Assembly: GCF_009931435.1 (NCBI RefSeq)
Contig: NZ_CP043414.1
DNA from: Escherichia coli
Lineage (GTDB): Bacteria; Pseudomonadota; Gammaproteobacteria; Enterobacterales; Enterobacteriaceae
DNA: 64,000 bases
Direction: 5' to 3' (one strand)
The translations under genes were made by a program, and so were the position numbers. The notes beneath the pieces were generated by a model. That model saw nothing but the letters and a program-made list of their open reading frames with translations. It did not search any database and was not told the origin of the DNA. Positions 42,030-57,287 of the stretch are shown piece after piece. Position 1 is the first letter of the stretch. Every line of letters starts with the position of its first letter.

Positions 42030-43103
42030 TTACGAAAGCCCGCTCCCCGCAAGGACTGACGCCAGATACTTTCTGTCCATGGCTGCTTTTCGCATCTTAC
42101 GTCTTAACCCTGCCTTGAATACCTTATCATTCGTCAAAATATTAATTGCGATGTGCCGTATCCCTGAAAATAATTCTGCTGCATTTCCTCTTCTTATTTT
42201 GCAGTCGTCTTCATTCATTACCACGTCCAGACGCCAGTGCAGCTTATTCTCCACGTGCCAGTGGTTTCGGATTGCTGTGGCGAACTTCTCTGCGGTTAAA
42301 TCAGCAGAACTGATATAATATCTGACCGTCATTTCTGGCTCTTTCTTTTGTTCTGCTATTATTGACCGAAAGGAGACTGCCACGCATAATTTCTTCAGAC
42401 CTTTCCATTCAAACGTGAAATCAATAAGTTCATCAGGGACATCGCAAACAATGTGAAGACGGATTTCTTCTCTGCCGTGACTCTTTTCACTAATTGCGTA
42501 ACTGTCATGCTCTGGATTATTTAATTCTTTCAGCGGAAATTTTTCCTCGAAGCCTTTATTTAGCCGCCCCTGGTTTCCTTTTACAGCGAATAAATAATCA
42601 CCTCCCTGTTTTTGTATCTTCTCTGCAATATCTTTCTGGCAACCCATCGCATCAGTTGTGATGATTTTTCCTTTAATATCCAGCATGTTAAGAAGTTCTG
42701 GGATAGCTGTAATCTCATTGGATTTCTCATCCGTCTTGATCTGTCCGATGACCAGACTGTGCATTGTTGAGAACGCACTAATGACATGAATCGCTCCCCT
42801 GCGGCGACTCTTGTCATAAGAGTGCCGGAGCGTTTTTCCATCAATTGCAATGACGCCTTTATCATCTGAAGAATGGCAGTCACGCATCCAGTTAATAAAG
42901 CACTCGTGAAATTTTGCAGGACTGATACAGGATACAACTCTGGCAATGGTATCGTGAACAGGAATACCATTTTCAAAATCACCATATTGCTTCAAAAAAT
43001 CGAGATGTGTTTCCCCAAAATCCTCTATATCTTCCCAACCTTCTGCACCCGAAATAACGGCGCAAATAGTCAACAGTAGAATATCCGATAATTTATGTTC
43101 CAC
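42030..43103 (-). mobile_element. ISAs1-family (H-repeat-associated) transposase, intact ORF
   Basis: 357-aa ORF recognised as H-repeat/ISAs1 transposase ([39 protein letters not shown]...); lies next to the Rhs genes. Element ends (inverted repeats) not determined. Confidence 0.8.
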
Positions 43104-43310
43104 TTTCTAGGCTTGTCTGTAATCGGGGATAATAGAAATATGTTCCATCAATTTTTTAAGTTCCATTTTGTTCTCCTTAATTATGTAAGGAGTATTTGAT
43201 CATGTATAAGCAATAAAAAACAGCTTCAGGTAATGAGGAATATCTCAATTTTTAAACATAAAATGCGAATTGTTTAGTACAAAAAAGCAGCGTTACGTGA
43301 TCTTTCCCTG

Positions 43311-43414
43311 CCAGCCCCTCCGGGTTGACCTGCTCCGTCACCCGCAGAACCCTGCACAATATCCAGTCCCTTGCAGGTCATGTCACCCTGCCGCGCCGCC
43401 GGTTTTCCGCTCAT
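43311..43414 (-). pseudogene. Orphan Rhs 5' fragment (Rhs upstream region + first 22 codons fused to a short internal Rhs piece)
   Basis: Minus strand 43414 down to 43345 near-identical to the Rhs2 start ([13 protein letters not shown][C][11 protein letters not shown]) and preceded by the same upstream sequence (CATGGTTTATTCCT); 43344-43311 matches an internal Rhs segment (…[11 protein letters not shown]…) read out of frame; stop soon after. Confidence 0.55.
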
Positions 43415-43546: not shown

Positions 43547-43939
43547 TCATTTCATTTTTTTAAAACATACGTTAATGCCATTCACACTTCCACATTCACC
43601 AAAAGCATCAAAATAAATTTCACATTTATTGTTGCCTTTCGAAATGATGCTAACCCCCCATCTTATATTGTTATATTTTTCTTTTCTGAAATACTTCATT
43701 TGCAATAAATCAATTATCTTACCCGCATAGAGATCGCTAAGTTCATTCACCACCACTTTATATCTGTATATTTCATTAAGACCTTCCTTGCTAAGCGGAA
43801 CTAACGTGGTAACATACGATGGAAGATTAACTACCTCTATCGTTTTCACGCTATCTATTCCACACAATTCATTCACTCGCCCCATCCCCAATACCGAACC
43901 AGAAAATAGAGACAATAAAACCATCAAATATTTCATCAT
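43547..43939 (-). CDS. Putative secreted immunity protein for the Rhs2 C-terminal toxin
   Basis: Track ORF starts at GTG 43951, overlapping the Rhs2 stop; ATG at 43939 has a GAGG SD. Sec signal peptide (MMKYLMVLLSLFSGSVLG), about 130 aa, AT-rich, immediately 3' of the Rhs2 toxin domain. No recognised family. Confidence 0.55.
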   Translation of the reverse strand: MMKYLMVLLSLFSGSVLGMGRVNELCGIDSVKTIEVVNLPSYVTTLVPLSKEGLNEIYRYKVVVNELSDLYAGKIIDLLQMKYFRKEKYNNIRWGVSIISKGNNKCEIYFDAFGECGSVNGINVCFKKMK

Positions 43940-43950
43940 AAAAAACCTCA

Positions 43951-46900
43951 CTATTCTGGCGTACCCGTTATTGTCATCGTCTGCAACGGTCCATCCACCC
44001 GATAAAAAGGCAGTCCACTATGAGCTCCTCTGACACACTCATCTAAAGTTTTCGCCGCACGCGATTCAATTATTGTAATAACCCTTGCCTCTTCTTTATT
44101 ATCATATTTCTTATCCGTCCGACTTAAAAGAGCCATGAAATTTTCTTTATCAAGAAGGTAATACTGTGCATGTGCAAACTCATGCCCCAAACCTAATGCA
44201 GGCGATTGTGATTTCGAGTTTAATTCAGTTGAACAAAATAAAGACGCTCTACTATTCCAATATATCGTCATATTATTCGAATTAAATCTACCATTGGTTC
44301 CTTCAATATACTCTATATTTATAGTTTCTTCAGAGCTTGATAAAAAATCTATAGCATCTTTCATTCGTGAATCTTTTTCTAAATACTTAACAGCCTGATT
44401 AAAATCACTTGGATCACCATTAACCTCGAATTTTAAACCCAAAGAATCTATAAACCGAACAGGGTTTAATGGATATTTATACAGATTCCATTCACCTCTT
44501 AGCCCGATTGGATCCTGCGTGATATACCTCCCCTGCAACGGGTCATAGTACCGGTGACGGTTGTAGTACAGCCCCGACTCCTCATCATACTGCTGCCCTG
44601 GCAGACGGTACGGCTGTTGCAGGTGCTCCGGGTTTTCCTCTCCCAGCAGGTTTCCCCACTCGTCATACTCCCCGCGCCACGCCGTTTCCCCTTCCGGGCT
44701 GATAAGCGCCTGCGGCAGCCCACGGTGGTCACAGTGGTAAAGATGAAGTTTCCTCTCCGGGATGTATTCTTCCTCCATCTGGTTGTTCATCTGTTCCGCC
44801 GTCAGCCCGCACTGCGCAAGCCATGCTTCACTCTCCGCACTCACCGCACCCGCGCGCAGTTCCCGCTCCAGCCTCCCCAGCATCACCGACAGCTCCGCCG
44901 GGAGCGTCACACCCGTGTCCTCCTGCAACACCTCCGCCAGGCTACGGTGCCGCGCCTTCGCCTGTTCGCCATTCTCTGTTTCGATTCTCAGGAGCGGCGT
45001 GAAGCTTCCCGGCTGATAAATCGTCTGGATACGTGTGGTGCCGGTCTGTACCGTCGTCAGCCTGTCACCGTCCCACCCGTACCATGTCTCCTCCGGTTTA
45101 CGCGACAGCGACATCCATCCCGTCAGGTCACGCTCCCGCCGCCACACCCGTTTTCCCGTCCTGCGGCCCAGCGGGTCGTAAAGGTAGCGGCTCTCCACCT
45201 GCGGCTCGCCGTGCTGTATCCGCGTGTAGAACACCAGACGGTGCTGGCTGTCGTAATGGTAGTGGTGGGTGCGCTCGTCGTGCATCCGTATCACCCCTTC
45301 CGGGATACGGTCCGTCTTCTCCGCCAGCCTGCCGTATTCATCGTGGCGGTAGACATAGTGCGCATCTTCCGCGATGCGGTTATCCGGCCACGCCGTGAAG
45401 GTGCTGTCCGGGTGCAGTTCCGGGTCCGGCAGCCGGTTTCCTGCCGGGTCCGTCGCATACGGGATATCAATGTCCAGGTTCGCTGCCGTGGTGTGGACGC
45501 CCGTCAGCCTTCCCGTGTCGCTGTAACGGTACTCCCGGCTCTCCTGCGGGCCGCTGATACGCACCAGTTGCCCGTTATCATTCCACGTATACTCACGGTC
45601 AAGCTGCGGAAGGTTCAGGTGCCTGCTCCGGAGCTGGCCTGTGAGGGTGTATGTGCTGGTCAGTTCATATGCGGCATTACTGCCTGCCATGCTGCCGAAG
45701 CTGCGCACCGTCTCACGGTGCAGCCTGTCCCGCGTGTACTCGACCAGCGGCGTTCCGCCCAGCTTCATCCCCGCAAGATAACCGCTGCCATACGTCAGCC
45801 ACTCCACCGGCGGCAGACCGTCCGGCTCCTGACGGGTCGCCAGCCCCTGTTCGCTGTACGCGTGCCCCGTCTCATGCTCCCACAGCATCTCCCCCGTCTC
45901 CGGGTTCTCCACCGTCTGCCGTTCGCCCGTCAGGCGGCCCTTATCGTCATAGCCGTAGTGGACCGCCACACGGTGGCCTTCACTGGTATGGCTGAGGGTG
46001 GTTAACCACCCGTGCTCATCATACTGCCACTGCTCTGCCGCTTCGCCGTTCACCGTCCGGTGCGTGATGCGGTCCGACGCATCGTAGTGCCAGAGGGTGA
46101 TAAGTCCCTCGTCTTCACTGCGGACAAGCTGCCCTGTGGCGCTGTACCGGTAACGCTGTGTCCGTCCGTCAAAGCCGCGCTGCTCCGTCAGGCGGTCCAC
46201 CGGGTCATACAGGAACGTGGACTGGCTGCCGTTCTCATTAGTCAGCGTGGTGATGCGCCCGGCGGCGTCATACCCCATGCTGCGCGTCAGACCGCCCTGC
46301 GTGGTGCTGATAGCTTTACCCCACGCATCATACTGTGTCTCACTGCGGCTGCCGTTCGGGGCAATGATAGCGGTGAGGTCGCCTGCGGCGCTGTACTCAT
46401 AACGGGTTTCACGCCCCTGCACATCCTTCTGACTGACCAGTTGACCACGCGGGTTATAACTGCTGTAAGTGCTGATGCCTTCTTCCCGGTGAACCGCCGT
46501 CCTCTGCCCGTACCGGTCGTACTCATACCGTGTCGTGTACCCCGAGCAGTCCGTGAAGGCCAGCAGTTGACCGTAGCGGCTCCATGCCATCTGTTTTGTA
46601 CTGCCCGTCGCATCCTGTATCCCTGTCGGCAGCTCACTCGCCGGGTCATCATAGCTGTACCGCGTCGTCTCACCGCTGCGCGAGGTCTCCGCCGCCAGCC
46701 TTCCCTTCTCATCATACTCCCGGCTGCTGCGAAGCCCGTCCGGGTACGTCACTGACGTCACCTGCCGCTGGCTGTTGTAGCCATACCGCACCGTCCTGCC
46801 GTCCGGCCCCGTCACCGCCGTCACCGCGCCCGACGCCATATGCAGGCTGTACTCCGTCCGCCGCCCCGCCGCATCCGTCTGCGCCTTCAGCCTCCCCGCC

Positions 46901-48207
46901 GCATCATACTCGCTGCGGGTGATGCTCCCGTCCGCATGCTCCTTCTTCACCACCCGCTTCAGGCCACCCTCGCCTTCCGTGTACAGCACCTCCCGCCTGT
47001 TCAGGCTGTCCGTGATGGTCACACGGTCCTGCCCGTACTCAAAGCGGTAGGCCAGCCCCTCCGGGTTGACCTGCTCCGTCACCCGACCGGTATCATCATA
47101 CCGGTAGCGGCTCTCCGGCCTCCCCGCATAATGGTGCGCCACCATCCGCCCGGCGTGCTCCGCATCATAAGTAAACCCGCGCACCTGCGTCCCGCTGCGG
47201 TCATACACCGCCAGCAACTCACCGCTGGCCGTGTACGTGTAGCGCGCCAGCGGCGCAGTCGGCTGTTCATCCGGGTATGCCGGGTCGTGTGTCAGCCACA
47301 CCGCCTCCAGCCGGATACCGTTATCGGCACCGTATTCTGTACCGGCGGGCAGCGTGTCGGGGAAAACCTGAGAAGAGGAAACAGAACGGGGACCGGCAGG
47401 GGAAGATAAAGACGTGGCGCGCTGTTTACGGCAGGCTTCCGCCCGCTGCGCCTGCGTGCTCAGCAACAGGTGAAAACGACGGCCCGCACCGTCCGTCCCC
47501 CCCGTCACCGCGCCCGCCACGTCACCCTCCGCTGCCCGGTGAAAGGCCAGCGTCCGACCAAAGCCATCCACCACGCCCGTCAGCACCCGGTATGCGGGCG
47601 GTTCCGGCGGCAGCACCTCGTCCGCCCCCGGCACCCGCTCCGGCCAGCTGAGTATCCACCACGGCCCCTGAAGGCTGTTTGTCGCCAGGTACACATGCGG
47701 ACTCAGGCGAACATCTTCCGGCAGCACCTGCCAGAGCGCGCTTAGCGGCTGCGAACTGTGCTGCTCCGCCCCCCCGCCCCGCGCCAGCCAGAACGACTCG
47801 CTGCGGCTGTAGCTTATCTCGCCGGGAAACAGCGGCTCAAAGTGAATGCTCCTGCCGCCGTTGTCGTTGAGTATCAGTTCCCGCTCATGAACCTGTAAGC
47901 GGATATCGAAGGGCGCTTTCCAGCCGGGGCCGAACACGCCCACCGGCGCGGGCGTCCTGGTCCGGTAACTGCTGTAAGCGCGGGAAAGAATAAACGGCAG
48001 CGGGCCGGGCAGTGCCAGGTCCGTCTCGCCCGGCAGCACCTTCGCACCCAGCACCGGGTTCACCGGGTTAGCATAGGTAATCCCTCCCGGACACACCGAG
48101 CAGGCCACTCCCGTCGGCGCACCTATCAGCACCCCTGCTGAACCCTGCACAATATCCAGTCCCTTGCGGGTCATGTCGCCCTGCCGCGCCGCCGGTTTTC
48201 CGCTCAT
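43951..48207 (-). CDS. PAAR-Rhs polymorphic toxin (Rhs2), HExxH-containing C-terminal domain
   Basis: 1418 aa; N-terminus carries a literal PAAR motif ([13 protein letters not shown]...GSAGVLIG); long YD-repeat core; core ends [27 protein letters not shown]; last about 160 aa unique, with HEFAH. Confidence 0.9.
44497..47450. repeat. Rhs core direct repeat, copy A (paired with 50623-53580)
   Basis: Track shows identical 483-aa antisense ORFs at 44554-46005 and 50680-52131, so at least 1.45 kb is nucleotide-identical between the two Rhs genes; flanking core highly similar with scattered substitutions. Outer boundaries approximate. Confidence 0.8.
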
Positions 48208-48330: not shown

Positions 48331-49323
48331 TCATTGTTTGTTATCAGAAAGTGTTTTATACAGCGGCACATATCCCACGTCTTCCACAAGACTTTGCCCC
48401 TGAGGGCTTAAAAACCAGTCCACTAGTTTTTGTGTTTCCGGTGTCGGCTTTTCGCGGGTGACCATGTAGGCATCCACCACATACGGATAAGTACCGTTGC
48501 GGATATTCTCCACCGTTGGTGCAATACCATTTATTGCCAGCAGCTTAAGATTTGGGCTTATATCCTTATTCATCTGTGTGACATAATAGCGGAAGGTGTA
48601 ACCAATTGAAGGCTGCGTATTCCGGTAGGCAATTACTTTGGTTAACACTCCATTCATAAGGCTTACTTCTGTAGATGTTCTGGCGGGTAGCATCGGTGTC
48701 TCTTTCATCACCTTTGCCAGCATCACCGTCTGGCTACCGGAATCTTCCGGACGCTGCCAGACCTGAATGCGCTCATCACTGCCACCAACCTGACTCCAGC
48801 GGGTGATTTTACCGCTGAAGATATCCCGAACCTGCTGTTCAGTAAAAGAACTGACCGGATTACTGGCGTTAACGATAAAAACAAAGGCTTCGTGGGCGAA
48901 GGGGGTATAAACCAGTTTCACCCCGGCATCGGCAGCCCGTTGTTTTTGTCCTGCGGAAGGCTGGGCAACAAAAATAACATCGGCCTGGCGCTTTATGAGA
49001 TCATTATAGGCTTCTGGTGTACGAGTCGGATACATATAATTCAAACCCGGATCTTGATGGTTATCCCCGGGGATCAAATATCGGTAAGCTGAAGCATACA
49101 GTGGATATAACGCGGTTGCACCACATACCCGGGGCCATTTATTCGAGTTATCAGTGTAGCGTAAAGTGGGTTCTCCTCGTATATTGGTTTTCTCCCAACT
49201 CACTGTTTCTTTTACGCTGTTATCGCCCCCGCCGTCTACACATCCTGACATTAATACCGTCATATAAAATAATACTGGTAACAGGCCCACCCTACGCATA
49301 CAATGATTTAATAAATACGCCAT
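48331..49323 (-). CDS. PstS-like (phosphate-binding-protein fold) putative lipoprotein, orphan
   Basis: Track ORF 48331-49365; start placed at ATG 49323 (GAGG SD 5-6 nt upstream) giving MAYLLNHCMRRVGLLPVLFYMTVLMSGC with lipobox-like LMSGC; PstS-like motifs (VIFVAQPSAGQ..., FTEQQVRDIFSGKITRWSQVGGSDERIQVW); no ABC transporter genes nearby. Confidence 0.55.
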   Translation of the reverse strand: MAYLLNHCMRRVGLLPVLFYMTVLMSGCVDGGGDNSVKETVSWEKTNIRGEPTLRYTDNSNKWPRVCGATALYPLYASAYRYLIPGDNHQDPGLNYMYPTRTPEAYNDLIKRQADVIFVAQPSAGQKQRAADAGVKLVYTPFAHEAFVFIVNASNPVSSFTEQQVRDIFSGKITRWSQVGGSDERIQVWQRPEDSGSQTVMLAKVMKETPMLPARTSTEVSLMNGVLTKVIAYRNTQPSIGYTFRYYVTQMNKDISPNLKLLAINGIAPTVENIRNGTYPYVVDAYMVTREKPTPETQKLVDWFLSPQGQSLVEDVGYVPLYKTLSDNKQ

Positions 49324-49627
49324 ATACCTCACTCTAAAATATTGATTATATAAATACATATGCATAATTATATTTACATCAAATTCTGAATGAACAATTT
49401 AAATTTAGAGAAAGTGAAATTTAATTTTTCGATACTTCCGCATACATATTCCCCTCGCTAAAAAATCATCATTCCACAATCAATCATTAATTACAACTCA
49501 ATATACATCATTTAACTTTCATTAAACTCGCAATTTATTATTACATTGTAGCCATTATGAACTGTCATCACGCACACACTCTACATACACATTAGAAACA
49601 ATATAACCCCATGAGCCATCCTCCGTT

Positions 49628-50074
49628 TCAATACTTAGTGCAGCGTGTCTTAAGGAAATTAGAAGCCACAACATCAATCTTTTCTTTTAAGACTAAATCA
49701 TCCACATAATCACAAGACAAATAGAAGTCATTACCATCGGCCATTATAAATATCCTCATAGGTAAAGATTTATCATTATCAACATGAGCATTCGTAATAA
49801 TCCAATAATAAGGAAATCTAACATTTTTTGTAGGAATACCCAATAAATCATAAGCTTTATTATTATATTCTATCGCTCCCTTAACAAACGTTGGTTTGAC
49901 CTCCTTACCAATAATGCGATGCGACGTATATTCTTCCTTCTCAGCAAACGATTGCATTAATGCCCATATAGGTTTATTTGCCAGCTCACCGTGATGAAAA
50001 ATCCGATAAAAATACACTCCTAAAAAAAATATTAAGCCTAAGCAAACCAATACCATGAGGCAGTTCTTACTCAT
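49628..50074 (-). CDS. Putative membrane-anchored immunity protein for the Rhs1 C-terminal toxin
   Basis: 148 aa; ATGA start/stop overlap with Rhs1; single N-terminal TM helix ([19 protein letters not shown]); AT-rich. No recognised family. Confidence 0.55.
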
Positions 50075-53000
50075 TGATTAAAATCCGTAAAATTAGAAGG
50101 AACAGGGCCATTCTCAGGTGAAAACAATGGAGATGTATTTGATACTCGTGATGCTATCATTTCTACAGTAGCAGGAAGATACATTGGCATTCCATTATCA
50201 CCACCTAGCGGATCAGTTGAAGTTAAAATTTCATTTATTGAATCTACTGAGACTCCCGCATGCAACATTGCCTCAATAACCATTGTTGCACAATTGTGCG
50301 TAAAATAGTTATAGTCACTTCTATCTACTTTATATTTTTCATCAATGTACTTAATCATTGCTTTCTCTTGTTCTGGCGTGGTTTTAATTGTATATATCCT
50401 CGTGCTTCTACGTTGTGCTTGTTCAGTTAAATAAGCTATGACACTCCCTCCACGTGGGGTAGCGGTTCCATAGCTATATACCCCTTTTCCAGTAAATGCC
50501 ATCGCAGAATGCCCTAATGGATTACCACTCGTGGGTCCCCCAGCAAAAATAAGGGTATCCAAACCAAGTGGATCTATATTTATAGTTGGATTCCACGGAT
50601 ATTTATAAAGATTCCATCCCCCCGCAAGCCCGATTGGATCCTGCGTGATATACCTCCCCTGCAACGGGTCATAGTACCGGTGACGGTTGTAGTACAGCCC
50701 CGACTCCTCATCATACTGCTGCCCTGGCAGACGGTACGGCTGTTGCAGGTGCTCCGGGTTTTCCTCTCCCAGCAGGTTTCCCCACTCGTCATACTCCCCG
50801 CGCCACGCCGTTTCCCCTTCCGGGCTGATAAGCGCCTGCGGCAGCCCACGGTGGTCACAGTGGTAAAGATGAAGTTTCCTCTCCGGGATGTATTCTTCCT
50901 CCATCTGGTTGTTCATCTGTTCCGCCGTCAGCCCGCACTGCGCAAGCCATGCTTCACTCTCCGCACTCACCGCACCCGCGCGCAGTTCCCGCTCCAGCCT
51001 CCCCAGCATCACCGACAGCTCCGCCGGGAGCGTCACACCCGTGTCCTCCTGCAACACCTCCGCCAGGCTACGGTGCCGCGCCTTCGCCTGTTCGCCATTC
51101 TCTGTTTCGATTCTCAGGAGCGGCGTGAAGCTTCCCGGCTGATAAATCGTCTGGATACGTGTGGTGCCGGTCTGTACCGTCGTCAGCCTGTCACCGTCCC
51201 ACCCGTACCATGTCTCCTCCGGTTTACGCGACAGCGACATCCATCCCGTCAGGTCACGCTCCCGCCGCCACACCCGTTTTCCCGTCCTGCGGCCCAGCGG
51301 GTCGTAAAGGTAGCGGCTCTCCACCTGCGGCTCGCCGTGCTGTATCCGCGTGTAGAACACCAGACGGTGCTGGCTGTCGTAATGGTAGTGGTGGGTGCGC
51401 TCGTCGTGCATCCGTATCACCCCTTCCGGGATACGGTCCGTCTTCTCCGCCAGCCTGCCGTATTCATCGTGGCGGTAGACATAGTGCGCATCTTCCGCGA
51501 TGCGGTTATCCGGCCACGCCGTGAAGGTGCTGTCCGGGTGCAGTTCCGGGTCCGGCAGCCGGTTTCCTGCCGGGTCCGTCGCATACGGGATATCAATGTC
51601 CAGGTTCGCTGCCGTGGTGTGGACGCCCGTCAGCCTTCCCGTGTCGCTGTAACGGTACTCCCGGCTCTCCTGCGGGCCGCTGATACGCACCAGTTGCCCG
51701 TTATCATTCCACGTATACTCACGGTCAAGCTGCGGAAGGTTCAGGTGCCTGCTCCGGAGCTGGCCTGTGAGGGTGTATGTGCTGGTCAGTTCATATGCGG
51801 CATTACTGCCTGCCATGCTGCCGAAGCTGCGCACCGTCTCACGGTGCAGCCTGTCCCGCGTGTACTCGACCAGCGGCGTTCCGCCCAGCTTCATCCCCGC
51901 AAGATAACCGCTGCCATACGTCAGCCACTCCACCGGCGGCAGACCGTCCGGCTCCTGACGGGTCGCCAGCCCCTGTTCGCTGTACGCGTGCCCCGTCTCA
52001 TGCTCCCACAGCATCTCCCCCGTCTCCGGGTTCTCCACCGTCTGCCGTTCGCCCGTCAGGCGGCCCTTATCGTCATAGCCGTAGTGGACCGCCACACGGT
52101 GGCCTTCACTGGTATGGCTGAGGGTGGTTAACCACCCGTGCTCATCATACTGCCACTGCTCTGCCGCTTCGCCGTTCACCGTCCGGTGCGTGATGCGGTC
52201 CGACGTATCGTAGTGCCAGAGGGTGATAAGCCCCTCGTCTTCACTGCGGACAAGCTGCCCTGCGGCGCTGTACCGGTAACGCTGTGTCCTGCCATCAAAG
52301 CCGCGCTGCTCCGTCAGGCGGTCCAGCACATCATAGGTAAACTCACTCCGGCTGCCGTTCTCGTTGGTCAGCACGGTGATGCGCCCGGCGGCGTCATACC
52401 CCATGCTGCGCGTCAGCCCGCCCTGCGTGGTGCTGACGGCCTTTCCCCACGCATCATACTGTGTCTCACTGCGGCTGCCGTCCGGGGCAATGATAGCGGT
52501 GAGGTCGCCTGCGGCGCTGTACTCATAACGGGTTTCACGCCCCTGCACATCCTTCTGACTGACCAGTTGACCACGCGGGTTATAACTGCTGTAAGTGCTG
52601 ATGCCTTCTTCCCGGTGAACCGCCGTCCTCTGCCCGTACCGGTCGTACTCATACCGTGTCGTGTACCCCGAGCAGTCCGTGAAGGCCAGCAGTTGACCGT
52701 AGCGGCTCCATGCCATCTGTTTTGTACTGCCCGTCGCATCCTGTATCCCTGTCGGCAGCTCACTCGCCGGGTCATCATAGCTGTACCGCGTCGTCTCACC
52801 GCTGCGTGAGGTCTCCGCCGCCAGCCTTCCCTTCTCGTCATACTCCCGGCTGCTGCGCAGCCCGTCCGGGTACGTCACTGACGTCACCTGCCGCTGGCTG
52901 TTGTAGCCATACCGCACCGTCCTGCCGTCCGGCCCCGTCACCGCCGTCACCGCGCCCGACGCCATATGTATCCGGTACTCCGTCCGCCGTCCCGCCGCAT

Positions 53001-54342
53001 CCGTCTGCGCCTTCAGCCTCCCCGCCTCATCATACCCGCTGCGGGTGATGCTCCCGTCCGCATGCTCCTTCTTCACCACACGCTTCAGGCCACCCTCGCC
53101 CTCCGTGTACAGCACCTCCCGCCTGTTCAGGCTGTCCGTGATGGTCACACGGTCCTGCCCGTACTCAAAGCGGTAGTCCAGTCCCTCCGGGTTGACCTGC
53201 TCCGTCACCCGCCCGGTATCATCATACCGGTAGCGGCTCTCCGGCCTCCCCGCATAATGGTGCGCCACCATCCGCCCGGCGTGCTCCGCATCATAAGTAA
53301 ACCCGCGCACCTGCGTCCCGCTGCGGTCATACACCGCCAGCAACTCACCGCTGGCCGTGTACGTGTAGCGCGCCAGCGGCGCAGTCGGCTGTTCATCCGG
53401 GTATGCCGGGTCGTGTGTCAGCCACACCGCCTCCAGACGGATACCGTTATCGGCACCGTATTCTGTACCGGCGGGCAGCGTGTCGGGGAAAACCTGAGAA
53501 GAGGAAACAGAACGGGGACCGGCAGGGGAAGATAAAGACGTGGCGCGCTGTTTACGGAAGGCTTCCGCCCGCTGCGCCTGCGTGCTCAGCAACAGGTGAA
53601 AACGACGGCCCGCACCGTCCGTCACCCCCGTCACCGCGCCCGCCACGTCACCCTCTGCCACCCGGTGGAAAGTCATCGTCCGACCAAAGCCATCCACCAC
53701 GCCCGTCAGTACCCGGTATGCGGGTGGCTCCGGCGGCAGCACCTCGTCCACTTCCGGCACCCGCTCCGGCCAGCCGAGCACCAGCCACTGCCCGGTTGTG
53801 CTGACAGCCATCATATAGGTGTGTGGACTCAGGCGGACCGCTTCCGGCAGCGCCCGCCAGAACCGCGCAAGCGGGTGTCCTTTATGCTGTTTCAGCACCC
53901 CGCCCCGCGCCAGCCAGAACGACTCGCTGCGGCTGTAGCTTATCTCGCCGGGAAACAGGGGTTCAAAGTGGATGCTCCGGCCACCGCTGTCGTTAAGTAT
54001 CAGTTCACGCTCACAAATCTGTAAGCGGATGTCGGAGGGGGCTTTCCAGCCGGGGCCGAATATCCCCACCGGGGCTGGCGTCTTCGTCCGGTAACTGCTG
54101 TAGGCGCGGAAAAGGATGAACGGCAACGGGCCGGATAGTGCCAGGTCGGTTTCAGCAGGCAGTACCTTCGCTCCCAGCAGCGGGTTTACCGGATTGCCAT
54201 ATTTCGGCGTGGCTTCCCCTGTGGGACACACCGAGCAGGCAACCCCCGTCGGCGCACCTATCAGCACCCCTGCTGAACCCTGCACAATATCCAGTCCCTT
54301 GCGGGTCATGTCACCCTGCCGCGCCGCCGGTTTTCCGCCCAT
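50071..54342 (-). CDS. PAAR-Rhs polymorphic toxin (Rhs1), His/Cys-containing C-terminal domain
   Basis: 1423 aa; PAAR motif at N-terminus ([13 protein letters not shown]...); YD-repeat core; core ends [27 protein letters not shown]; last about 162 aa unique (…[11 protein letters not shown]…[11 protein letters not shown]…); GAAGGA SD; 75 nt downstream of vgrG. Confidence 0.9.
50623..53580. repeat. Rhs core direct repeat, copy B (paired with 44497-47450)
   Basis: See copy A; same orientation, about 6.1 kb apart. Confidence 0.8.
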
Positions 54343-54417: not shown

Positions 54418-56559
54418 TCAAAATTGCCGCATATCCGGCATTCCGGGGGGTAAATCTTTCGGCACAGGCGCATCCGGCACAGGTTGTGTGGCACCACAGT
54501 TCCAGTTAATCACCGGCGCATCACCGTTCACATCCGACTCCCCTTCCAGATGAATGTGCGTACCATTAAGAAATATGCTTCCGTCCTTCGTCAGCACCAG
54601 CCTTGCCTTACCACAGCAGAGTTCAAGATGCTCACCGGCAGAATAAACTGCTGTTTGTCCGGTGTTTTCCTTCATCGTCTTGCCCACCGAGAAGGTGACG
54701 TTATTCCCTACATTGACGCTGTAGCCCATTCCCACCATCAGTGATTTATGCAGCCCTACCTGTGAGGACTGCAACAACGCCACCGAGGTATTCATAATGC
54801 CGCCTACCGTCGTCTGGTAAGCCACGCCCACCGTCAGCGCACGAATGATCCCCACCTTTTCAACCTGGTTTGATCCCACTTTGATAATCTGGTTACTGCC
54901 CACCGTTTCCACCTGGTTGACACCAACCGTCTGTATCTGATTAACGCCAATGTTCTGGATCTGGTTATTGGTAACGGTGATCGCCTGGTTGTTACCTATT
55001 TTTTCGGCATGGTTGTTTATCACATCAGTGGTGCGGTTATTCAGCACCTCGGTGTTCATGTTCTTCTGCGCGTGGATGTAGACCTGTTCTTTCCCTGTCG
55101 CATCGTCAAACTTCAGTTCATTAAACCCGCTGCCCTTATAGGTTTTCGAACGAATGGTCATCTGCGTCTTTGTTCCCGGCAGGCTGCCGGGGGTGCGGTT
55201 TTCCTGGTGGTAGGTACGCCCCATAATAATCGGCTGGTCCGGATCGCCGTTGAGGAAGTCCACAATGACCTCCTGACCCACACGCGGTATCGCCAGGTTA
55301 CCAAACCCGGTGCCTGCCCACGCCTGTGCCACACGGATCCAGCATGAACTGTCCTGGTTTGACGGGTTATAACGGTCCCAGTTAAATTTCACCCGCACGC
55401 GGCCATGTTCATCACAGAAGATTTCTTCTCCTGCCGGTCCCGTCACGACGGCGCTCTGCGGGCCATCCACCAGCGGTTTCAGCAACGGCTGTGGCCGCCA
55501 TGTTCTGTCTGCCGGTATTACCGCAAAGTGGTTATTCAGCGTGGTACCTGAACCCCTGCGTCCCGGCACCGCCTGCGGCTGCTCGCCGTGCAGTTCACTT
55601 GCCACCACCTGCCATTCCCGGTTCAGGTTCGCCTGCGGATGCCCCGTCAGCGCAATTCGCCGTCCCGGCCATATCTCCGGAGAACGGCTTGTTCCGCGCG
55701 CCACTTCTGCGTTGTTTCGCCAGCCATCCATCTGCCAGCGGGCAAAGTTCTGCCCGTGGGCACCCTTGAAACGTCCGGGGTAGTCATACACTTCATACTG
55801 TGTGCGCTGGTAATCCTGGTACTGGCCTTCCTGATCAAAACGCCCTGCCCAGCCGGGTCGTTTAAAGGTGTAGTCCTTGGTCACCACGGAAGAAGGGCGG
55901 ATTTGTGCGCTGTAGCGGAACTGGCTGATGCATAGGGTGCTCACCTCGGTACGGGTGTTCGGATTCCAGGGGATCTCAAAGGACTCCGGCAGATAACGCA
56001 CGGTGTCGCACAGGACCAGGCTCTGGTCGGTACTTTTTTGCGCGTGCTCCTCATAAAAGAAGATGCCTTCCTCCGCCGCCATCCGGCACAGGAAATCGTA
56101 ATCGGTTTCGCCGTACTGGACACAAAACTCACGGGAAGGATGCGGCTCGCTGAACAGCGGACTCCACTCGGTCACCCCGTTTTCTTTCAGGATCGTCGCG
56201 AGTATGCTTTCGATGTCCTCATTCTGGAAGATACGGAAGTTCTGGCGCAGCCCTGTGCGCCACAGCGGTGGGCATACCTTCATGCTGTACAGCATCTGGT
56301 TTTTGTCGTTCTCCCCCAGTTCAAACCAGGTCACCACACCTTTCACCCGGCGCTGTACGTCATCGCCCTGCCATATCGTCAGGTAGGCCATTTTGTCCAG
56401 CACCTGCGCAAATTCAAGGGAGAGAAACTGCTGGCTGACCAGAGAGAGATCGAGGGAAAAGAGCGAAGAGAGTGACTGGTTCAGATGAAAGGAGACCACC
56501 GCAAACGCGTCCGGTGGCAGGCCGTCCACTTCCAGCGTGAAACGTAATCCGGTTGACAT
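54418..56559 (-). CDS. vgrG: VgrG (TssI) spike protein
   Basis: 713 aa; gp27/gp5-like region and C-terminal beta-helix repeats (VGVNQVETVGSNQIIKVGSNQVEKVG); no large C-terminal effector extension. Confidence 0.9.
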   Translation of the reverse strand: MSTGLRFTLEVDGLPPDAFAVVSFHLNQSLSSLFSLDLSLVSQQFLSLEFAQVLDKMAYLTIWQGDDVQRRVKGVVTWFELGENDKNQMLYSMKVCPPLWRTGLRQNFRIFQNEDIESILATILKENGVTEWSPLFSEPHPSREFCVQYGETDYDFLCRMAAEEGIFFYEEHAQKSTDQSLVLCDTVRYLPESFEIPWNPNTRTEVSTLCISQFRYSAQIRPSSVVTKDYTFKRPGWAGRFDQEGQYQDYQRTQYEVYDYPGRFKGAHGQNFARWQMDGWRNNAEVARGTSRSPEIWPGRRIALTGHPQANLNREWQVVASELHGEQPQAVPGRRGSGTTLNNHFAVIPADRTWRPQPLLKPLVDGPQSAVVTGPAGEEIFCDEHGRVRVKFNWDRYNPSNQDSSCWIRVAQAWAGTGFGNLAIPRVGQEVIVDFLNGDPDQPIIMGRTYHQENRTPGSLPGTKTQMTIRSKTYKGSGFNELKFDDATGKEQVYIHAQKNMNTEVLNNRTTDVINNHAEKIGNNQAITVTNNQIQNIGVNQIQTVGVNQVETVGSNQIIKVGSNQVEKVGIIRALTVGVAYQTTVGGIMNTSVALLQSSQVGLHKSLMVGMGYSVNVGNNVTFSVGKTMKENTGQTAVYSAGEHLELCCGKARLVLTKDGSIFLNGTHIHLEGESDVNGDAPVINWNCGATQPVPDAPVPKDLPPGMPDMRQF

Positions 56560-56768: not shown

Positions 56769-57287
56769 TTATGCTTCCAGCGGTGCGCGCCAGTCGTCGG
56801 CACCGGAGGTGCCAGATTTGACGTGTTCCCACTCAATCTTGCGGTAGGCCAGTGAAACTTCGAGCAACTGGGTGAACTCGCGTTTCGCCGGGTCCTGGCA
56901 ATGCGGCATATGCAGTTTCATATCGACAATCGTCGAATCAGTCAGGCGGGTGGTGAAATAATGCTCCTGTTTGCCTTCCACAGATGTACGCCACCAGTGC
57001 AGTTCAGTGGTTGGCAGCATTTCACCGGAGGCCAGTGCGTTGTACATCAGCGGAACCGCTTTGTTCAGCGCCACGGTAAAAATGAACGGCTTGTGAGCAC
57101 GCTGACCCGCAGGCTGACCGGACTGAGGATCGGTCGGGACAGTAACGTTATGCAGGAATTCCTGCACCAGCATCTCGTCTTCGTGCCCCTGCACATAGAT
57201 GTTGCCGACAGAATCAGCGGTAAATGCACCTGCAGTAATATTTCCCTGGGTCTGACCAGTGATGGAGATATAACACGGTGTTGGCAT
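56769..57287 (-). CDS. hcp: Hcp (TssD) tube protein
   Basis: 172 aa, Hcp1-family sequence (MPTPCYISITGQTQGNITAGAFTADSVGNIYVQGHEDEMLVQEF...); directly upstream of vgrG. Confidence 0.85.
   Translation of the reverse strand: MPTPCYISITGQTQGNITAGAFTADSVGNIYVQGHEDEMLVQEFLHNVTVPTDPQSGQPAGQRAHKPFIFTVALNKAVPLMYNALASGEMLPTTELHWWRTSVEGKQEHYFTTRLTDSTIVDMKLHMPHCQDPAKREFTQLLEVSLAYRKIEWEHVKSGTSGADDWRAPLEA

Follow-up and report, generated by a model that had tools for sequence, protein, structure and literature searches.

A predicted M91-type zinc protease at the tip of an Escherichia coli Rhs protein and its putative exported immunity family, dsORF-h1

Tox-HopH1, the peptidase domain of NleD and HopH1, was described by Zhang et al. 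in 2012 (PMC3482391) as a polymorphic-toxin domain that occurs with RHS repeats and with type VI secretion systems (T6SS), and no immunity family was listed for it. Rhs proteins with a Tox-HopH1 or Peptidase_M91 tip are already known from bioinformatic catalogues of E. coli and Salmonella. Amaya et al. in 2022 (PMC8867033) reported a PAAR-RHS-M91 protein and its partner (SED_RS06335/06340) in Salmonella pathogenicity island 19 (SPI-19) of Salmonella Dublin, in which the partner is a protein of 110 amino acids (aa) with a transmembrane domain. A 2024 preprint (bioRxiv 10.1101/2024.03.05.583533) described an Rhs-Peptidase M91 protein in Shiga toxin-producing E. coli (STEC) O22:H8 (Ec154_02824/02823) with an unassigned downstream open reading frame (ORF), and a 2026 survey places Tox-HopH1 among the T6SS effectors found most often in Salmonella. 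In this study, we analyzed a module of this kind in a stretch of 64,000 nucleotides (nt) of E. coli contig NZ_CP043414.1 (hereafter, the window), in which the gene of an Rhs protein, Rhs2, ends in a 160-aa toxin tip of the E. coli "RhsH type" and is followed by a gene that bears the RefSeq name "RHS element protein dsORF-h1." As in the window, the STEC and Salmonella Dublin versions, which come from in silico reports only, combine an Rhs core with an M91 tip and have a small ORF behind it. By description rather than by sequence, the STEC locus further resembles the window in having a VgrG gene followed by two Rhs genes, the second of which carries the M91 tip; its M91 copy is split by a premature stop, whereas Rhs2 of the window is intact.

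NleD of enteropathogenic and enterohemorrhagic E. coli (EPEC/EHEC) and HopH1 of Pseudomonas syringae are, like the Rhs2 tip, small zincins in which HExxH is followed by a [DE]N-type motif. Both are effectors of the type III secretion system (T3SS), have cytosolic proteins of eukaryotes as their targets, and lack an immunity partner, whereas the subfamily of the tip is coupled to a putative immunity protein that is exported. The subfamily has an invariant block of its own and matches the Pfam model of Peptidase_M91 (PF14891) weakly. M91, the family of NleD, is the peptidase family nearest to the light chains of the botulinum neurotoxins (BoNT-LC), and the two have HExxH, a Glu as the third ligand, a second Glu, and RxxY in common (PMC6367388); the downstream [DE]N motif and the acidic third ligand are given as M91 features in Zhang 2012 and Mansfield 2019. 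The botulinum and tetanus light chains (Peptidase_M27) show 12-19% identity to the tip. These light chains are about 400-430 aa long, contain substrate-binding insertions that are absent from M91 proteins (PMC6367388), have SNARE targets, and use another delivery system. The closest functional precedent is the pair formed by the C-terminal domain of VgrG2b (Tpe1) and PA0261 (Tpi1), described by Wood et al. in 2019 (PMC6899460). There, an HExxH metallopeptidase delivered by the T6SS shows toxicity in the periplasm only and is neutralized by an immunity protein with disulfides that has a signal peptide, is a lipoprotein, or is anchored in the membrane. Assignment of the present pair to VgrG2b/Tpe-Tpi was considered and rejected; the structural similarity is low, and no homology to the VgrG2b C-terminal domain or to PA0261-type immunity was found.

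The Rhs part of Rhs2 is complete. The NCBIfam RHS_core equivalog spans residues 1-1258 end to end with 2603 bits (cut-off 2000), Rhs_assc_core matches residues 1181-1258 (81.9 bits in NCBIfam), YD repeats are present, and Pfam finds DUF6531 and RHS_repeat in the first 420 aa. The DPIGL of the self-cleavage motif PxxxxDPxGL can be read in the sequence. The initial annotation, which was made from the nucleotide sequence, had described the last ~160 codons of Rhs2 as unlike those of Rhs1 (the other Rhs protein of the cluster), as set off by an abrupt switch from GC-rich to AT-rich DNA, and as encoding an HExxH signature with acidic residues downstream, and all of these observations were reproduced. 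The cores of Rhs1 and Rhs2 are 94% identical over 1258 aa, while the two tips show no similarity (BLASTP E = 4.6), and the GC content falls from 0.62-0.66 in the core to 0.32-0.40 in the tip, with the drop at about positions 44450-44500.

The tip was aligned with 22 homologs, and the resulting 23 sequences have a common invariant block around HEFAH, with identities of the homologs in the range of 32-53%. H84 and H88 are the predicted zinc-binding histidines, and E85 is the predicted catalytic residue. Downstream of HEFAH, EExRV (i.e., including E114 and E115), E123, E132, and R135 are invariant, and H138 is also conserved; the stretch Y-D-N-K-E-E holds a [DE]N-type motif, and D/E-N is found in most of the 23 aligned sequences. 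By analogy, E114/E115, E132, and R135-x-x-H138 look like the counterparts of the E261, E350, and RxxY features of M91 and BoNT-LC. The window tip matches Peptidase_M91 with E values of 9e-4 to 1.4e-3 (19-20 bits) at model positions 64-118 only. Across the alignment, this model is matched by 11 of the 23 sequences at E ≤ 1e-3 and by 21 at E ≤ 0.1, the best value being 6.6e-9, and the Hafnia homologs of the tip (44-47% identity) carry the NCBI name "M91 family zinc metallopeptidase" together with precomputed PF14891 matches. NCBIfam has no model for the tip and gave one weak match to Ceg23 (E 0.018); PDB sequence searches with the domain and with its profile returned only the Rhs junction or noise.

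An AlphaFold2 model of the tip, built on the same alignment, has a predicted local distance difference test score (pLDDT) of 94.3 and a predicted template modeling score (pTM) of 0.90. The modeled fold is that of a zincin and is nearest to M27 (BoNT-LC), as published for M91, and a Foldseek search against AFDB50 finds it again at the C termini of many RHS proteins from Salmonella, Bacteroidota, and other groups. As far as the fold is concerned, the model makes it close to certain that the tip is a metallopeptidase domain of the HExxH zincin kind, and it describes the tip as a compact M91/Tox-HopH1-like zincin with a BoNT-light-chain-like fold, for which zinc endopeptidase activity is predicted. 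The initial annotation had recognized neither the tip nor the downstream protein as belonging to any described family. This view has to be given up, as the tip falls into Peptidase_M91/Tox-HopH1 (the NleD family) and the downstream gene is already called dsORF-h1 in RefSeq. The profile and structure searches of the tip that it had proposed do lead to a characterized toxin family with respect to fold and family, but no characterized antibacterial activity was found for that family.

Both start codons noted initially for the downstream gene are present, i.e., a GTG at 43951 that overlaps the TAG stop of Rhs2 and an ATG at 43939, 12 nt after the stop. The ATG has GAGG 6 nt upstream and is the start used by RefSeq in other genomes. 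The predicted protein has a basic start, a hydrophobic core (Kyte-Doolittle maximum of 2.21 for 10 residues from residue 5), and small residues at -3/-1. A lipoprotein signal was rejected for the E. coli protein, in which N-E-L-C before Cys26 forms no lipobox. The mature enterobacterial proteins contain four conserved cysteines, and the family follows the pattern VEI..hP..I.TR ... DLRWG ... YFD..G..G., all motifs of which are present in the window copy up to a frameshift that is described below. No Pfam or NCBIfam model matches dsORF-h1, Pfam is likewise empty for 40 relatives, and a PDB search with the dsORF-h1 profile returned nothing. In the literature search, "dsORF-h1" was not mentioned and "RhsH" appeared only in unrelated uses. 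The name presumably goes back to the work on Rhs elements in the Hill laboratory in the 1990s.

The first search for homologs of dsORF-h1 returned only relatives from E. coli and Shigella, typically 149 aa long, and a word-indexed search with their alignment returned almost only E. coli sequences, with no taxonomic gain. When run against 1.84 billion representative proteins, on the other hand, a profile of the mature parts matched 454 clusters with E values of up to 1e-3, and 105 of these had values of 1e-10 or less. Most members are 150-170 aa long, and the domain begins at about residue 30-50. A hydrophobic N-terminal segment precedes the domain in 121 of 147 representatives, 11 of which have a lipobox; judged by these patterns, at least 82% of the 147 representatives appear to carry a signal peptide, lipobox, or anchor. 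One apparently signal-less homolog turned out to be a clipped gene call, and the DNA upstream of it encodes a good signal peptide. In a metagenome protein of 117 aa (P0065), only the C-terminal half comes from dsORF-h1 and the N-terminal half is unrelated, which suggests recombination inside immunity genes.

The pairing of toxin and dsORF-h1 extends well beyond E. coli, where dsORF-h1 lies directly downstream of the toxin tip. A dsORF-h1 homolog directly follows the toxin homolog in Hafnia (BLASTP 2e-17), is next to a standalone 179-aa toxin at a metagenome locus (BLASTP 2e-7), and is also next to a toxin with its own signal peptide in a second, unrelated metagenome lineage (BLASTP 6e-5). A local scan of the fetched loci with hidden Markov models added six genome pairs, i.e., five in Eremiobacterota-type metagenome-assembled genomes (MAGs; loci L015, L016, L024, L034, and L058) and one in an Omnitrophica MAG (L017). 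Moreover, a dsORF-h1 homolog stands after a toxin remnant (L012), another is paired with an orphan Rhs tip module of the enterobacterial type (toxin 35% identical), and an Rhs-toxin-lipoprotein fusion was seen in one gene call. The scan of genome contigs used the pattern QSPALGLGH only, and 47 of its 49 loci are Eremiobacterota-type or similar-looking unclassified MAGs; because of this single pattern, the scan is biased to one subfamily and is uninformative on the Bacteroidota or Salmonella versions. Because the pairs recur in distant lineages, the toxin and dsORF-h1 appear to form an old, mobile two-gene module, the second gene of which is exported as a rule. The comparison supports the view that dsORF-h1 homologs behave as the cognate partner of the toxin across these lineages, with protection read from genetic linkage. 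Two elements go beyond the published annotations, namely, the putative broad exported immunity family that is tied to the toxin and has no Pfam model, and the proposal, open to testing, that a protease of the NleD/BoNT type works in the envelope of bacteria.

In one Hafnia assembly (L002, 739..1216), the dsORF-h1 homolog is split into two ORFs by a frameshift; in another (L003, 637..1212), it is intact.

Taken as a whole, the picture that we consider reasonably probable is that Rhs2 is a T6SS-delivered polymorphic toxin whose periplasm-acting protease is blocked by exported dsORF-h1; delivery, site of action, and inhibition by binding are the parts that we infer. The Rhs shell would end at the self-cleavage junction (DPIGL...SLGL) and enclose the recombinationally swapped 160-aa tip. 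The tip would belong to the NleD/HopH1 lineage (Peptidase_M91, Tox-HopH1) as a minimal zinc endopeptidase built on the core fold of the BoNT light chains. H84 and H88 would bind zinc, probably together with an invariant Glu as third ligand (E114 or E115), and E85 would serve as catalytic base. The upstream Hcp-VgrG genes would provide the spike, and the Rhs shell would carry the protease on the VgrG spike into a neighboring cell, where the tip would be freed in the prey periplasm and cut an envelope substrate. Translated from the start 12 nt past the rhs stop, dsORF-h1 would be exported by its Sec signal peptide and presumably bind and block the protease in the periplasm, thus shielding the producer and its kin.

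Periplasmic action of the toxin, as the initial annotation had already proposed, is the best inference, because the exported dsORF-h1 family is the partner of the toxin across distant lineages; by analogy with characterized T6SS effector-immunity pairs, exported immunity points to a toxin that acts in the periplasm. In the cytoplasm, the toxin domain seems to be harmless, because many signal-less standalone homologs occur without an immunity gene.

Several points weigh against this picture. In the papers found, no activity, toxicity, or protection is reported for any Rhs-M91 toxin, and the proteins cleaved by the characterized relatives NleD and BoNT are cytosolic and eukaryotic. For Rhs-Peptidase M91, the authors of the STEC preprint assume a bacterial target in the cytoplasm, and the 2026 survey classes Tox-HopH1 as anti-eukaryotic. 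About 40 standalone Eremiobacterota homologs have no adjacent immunity gene, so that the toxin domain is evidently not always self-toxic. The match of the window tip itself to the Pfam Peptidase_M91 model is weak, and Pfam gives no PAAR domain in the first 420 aa of Rhs2, the N terminus of which reads ...KPAARQGD.... The signal peptide of dsORF-h1 was called from hydrophobicity and the -3/-1 rule only, and a minority of the homologs (e.g., P0119) are truly without a signal peptide.

The loci of the standalone homologs provide a hint as to the substrate. These homologs are 150-165 aa long, have no signal peptide, and usually have no immunity gene (L006, L016, L018, L030, L052, L060, and about 20 other loci). 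At about 25 Eremiobacterota-type loci, the standalone homolog is closely followed, on its own strand, by three genes whose best NCBIfam matches are the N-acetyl-D-Glu racemase DgcA or an L-Ala-D/L-Glu epimerase, the N-acetyltransferase DgcN, and an oligopeptide-binding protein. L-Ala-D/L-Glu epimerases serve the recycling of murein peptides, and DgcN-DgcA is a catabolic route for D-glutamate (D-Glu). The latter route has been described previously (PMC10845958). At L016, an immunity gene is inserted between the peptidase gene and the DgcA/DgcN/peptide-binding genes. This synteny suggests that the ancestral enzyme handles D-Glu-containing peptides, and the standalone Eremiobacterota homologs may represent the housekeeping ancestor of the toxin domain. 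Cleavage of D-Glu-containing peptidoglycan stem peptides is our leading guess at what the toxin does, a tentative one drawn from gene neighborhoods; otherwise, the substrate may be a protein or lipoprotein of the periplasm. In its fullest form, the proposal would be that the M91/BoNT-LC-like subfamily with the invariant block is a periplasmic antibacterial toxin that cuts the stem peptide, rather than a protein, at a D-Glu-containing bond and was recruited onto Rhs from a cytoplasmic salvage enzyme for murein or D-Glu peptides, and that dsORF-h1 defines a widespread and new family of immunity proteins, exported and acting as protease inhibitors, a combination that we hold to be unlikely in all its parts together. 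Two points count against the substrate in particular, i.e., the DgcA and DgcN matches are below the curated cut-offs of NCBIfam, and the synteny may reflect shared ancestry in one phylum rather than function.

The copy of dsORF-h1 in the window differs from its relatives in a poly-A run (Table 1). The nearest relative (strain 2020CK-00188) has A8 at this position and the common allele (RM10466) has GA7, while the window has A7; the record of the window spans 887 nt, against 888 nt in all full-length E. coli matches listed, save two divergent matches of 886 nt. Because of the 1-nt deletion, the last 23 residues of dsORF-h1 are replaced by KKMK and a stop codon, so that the window protein ends ...VCFKKMK after 130 aa, while the canonical protein continues ...VCFEKNEMIGWIKKEIPLLSQKIGGL to 149 aa. 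The initial annotation of an approximately 130-aa protein with a signal peptide is therefore correct for the ORF and its signal-like N terminus, but it describes a shortened copy, the frameshift of which was missed. The frameshift removes the predicted C-terminal helix, and in other E. coli genomes rhs or vgrG is often a pseudogene (e.g., in RM10466) or rhs is truncated (in 2020CK-00188), so that the module may be decaying in places; both facts add to the points against a working toxin-immunity pair. They also favor the view that the module is a nonfunctional relic in this strain, with a toxin that is not expressed or delivered or with a frameshifted immunity gene that is tolerated in a silent system; the remnant of an Rhs N terminus and the ISAs1 element immediately downstream point the same way. 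We regard such a relic as rather improbable. Rhs2 is an intact ORF of 1418 aa with all catalytic residues, the adjoining T6SS genes seem intact, and the loss of one nucleotide from an A8 homopolymer, which affects only the last 23 residues, is typical of sequencing or assembly errors; the A7 may be such an error or a real lesion. Moreover, a relic would concern the state of one copy and would leave the nature of the module unexplained.

Export of dsORF-h1 also bears on where the protease acts. Most characterized Rhs toxins, such as nucleases and ADP-ribosyltransferases, act in the cytoplasm. If the protease likewise acted in the target bacterium's cytoplasm, as the STEC preprint assumes, dsORF-h1 would be membrane-anchored or mis-predicted and would neutralize the toxin before export; the few dsORF-h1 homologs without a signal peptide (P0119) would fit this arrangement, and a periplasmic dsORF-h1 would indeed leave the toxin to cross the cytoplasm of the producer unneutralized. 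However, the export signals of at least 82% of the dsORF-h1 representatives, some of them lipoboxes, the basic N terminus followed by a hydrophobic segment, which would put the bulk of dsORF-h1 in the periplasm, and the four conserved cysteines of the mature enterobacterial proteins all speak for the periplasm. In addition, the toxin homolog P0013 has its own Sec signal peptide, and the standalone cytoplasmic homologs without an immunity gene argue for harmlessness in the cytoplasm, which makes cytoplasmic action quite improbable. Least probable is that the tip is an anti-eukaryotic effector that cleaves host signaling kinases as NleD does and that dsORF-h1 is no immunity protein. In favor of this, NleD and HopH1 are members of the Pfam family to which the tip is assigned, the fold is nearest to that of the BoNT light chains, which act on eukaryotic proteins, and the 2026 Salmonella survey placed Tox-HopH1 among the anti-eukaryotic effectors. 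Against it, the toxin recurs time and again in tight linkage with a single family of small exported proteins, also in MAGs from soil and peat, where there is no animal host; a downstream gene that starts 12 nt past the stop codon has the layout of Rhs toxin-immunity pairs; and the other Rhs tip of the cluster is TseH/NlpC-like with a partner that is also a membrane or exported protein. The tip may nevertheless have a dual bacterial and eukaryotic role.

The periplasmic protease with an exported inhibitor, our preferred reading, would matter because the module is present in about one in five complete E. coli genomes and no measured activity, target, or defined immunity family was found for it in the literature. 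The exported immunity family favors an envelope target over the published cytoplasmic or anti-eukaryotic guesses. If the envelope target is correct, the NleD/botulinum protease lineage would be extended to substrates of the bacterial cell envelope, and a new family of immunity proteins and protease inhibitors would be added; if it is not, the module would be one more catalogued Rhs tip.

Table 1. Features of the Rhs cluster, with positions in the window
Feature	Position	Strand	Remarks
Hcp	57287..56769	minus	Upstream of the rhs genes
VgrG	56559..54418	minus	Upstream of Rhs1
Rhs1	54342..50071	minus	
Rhs1 tip	50071..50556	minus	162 aa; Pfam Lnb_N 3e-7, weak TseH and PPPDE matches
Rhs1 downstream ORF	49628..50074	minus	148 aa; overlaps Rhs1; hydrophobic N-terminal segment
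PstS-family (phosphate-binding-like) protein	48331..49365	minus	344 aa; lipoprotein-type N terminus; NCBIfam 128 bits versus cut-off of 206.6 bits
Rhs2, full ORF	48207..43951	minus	1418 aa and stop; from ORF list and translation
Rhs2, architecture			N-terminal PAAR-like sequence motif, DUF6531, RHS repeats, Rhs core, in this order
Toxin domain of Rhs2	44433..43954	minus	Last 160 codons (160 aa), AT-rich
HEFAH	44184..44170	minus	Tip residues 84-88, inside block invariant in the alignment; read from the sequence
E114-E115 acidic pair	44094..44089	minus	Invariant; at the beginning of the helix that follows the HExxH helix; candidate for the third zinc ligand
dsORF-h1, putative immunity gene	43939..43547	minus	130 aa in the window; end of the canonical 149-aa form would fall at about 43491
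Predicted Sec signal peptide MMKYLMVLLSLFSGSVLG	43939..43886	minus	Start of dsORF-h1; mature part begins MG
Poly-A run (A7) with 1-nt deletion	43561..43555	minus	From DNA alignment with 2020CK-00188 and RM10466
Rhs N-terminus remnant	43414..43274	minus	46 codons, beginning exactly as an Rhs protein does; another frame of the same DNA reads as a core piece
ISAs1 (H-repeat) transposase	43103..42030	minus	After the Rhs remnant; followed by yafV

The genes Hcp, VgrG, Rhs1, the 148-aa ORF, and the PstS-like lipoprotein gene precede Rhs2 in this order on the same strand, the last of them standing between the immunity-like ORF of Rhs1 and Rhs2 (Table 1). TssB and TssC are found on the opposite strand beyond Hcp, and the T6SS genes alongside seem intact. 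By its domain matches, the Rhs1 tip looks like a papain/NlpC-type hydrolase (TseH/NlpC-like). Because the partner of Rhs1 also starts with a hydrophobic segment, both Rhs toxins of the cluster seem to have envelope-located partners. The Rhs remnant downstream of dsORF-h1 is what an internal deletion has left of a third rhs gene. In Hafnia, the gene that follows the toxin-dsORF-h1 pair encodes an orphan Rhs tip of the TseH type with an Imm58 partner, so that both toxin types of the E. coli window are found there in reversed order.

Of the 5426 complete E. coli genomes, 1017-1082 (about 19%) carry the tip with dsORF-h1; there are 1082 genomes with a match, coverage is ≥80% in 1017 of them, and nearly all copies are about 96% identical. 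In other strains, the module lies behind VgrG at the ansP-pptA locus. An E. coli Rhs tip with dsORF-h1 is also present on a contig of 1670 bp labeled as a Collinsella sp. MAG (L014), in which the toxin is 92% identical at the protein level (tblastn); this is most likely an E. coli contig that was mis-binned into the Collinsella MAG.

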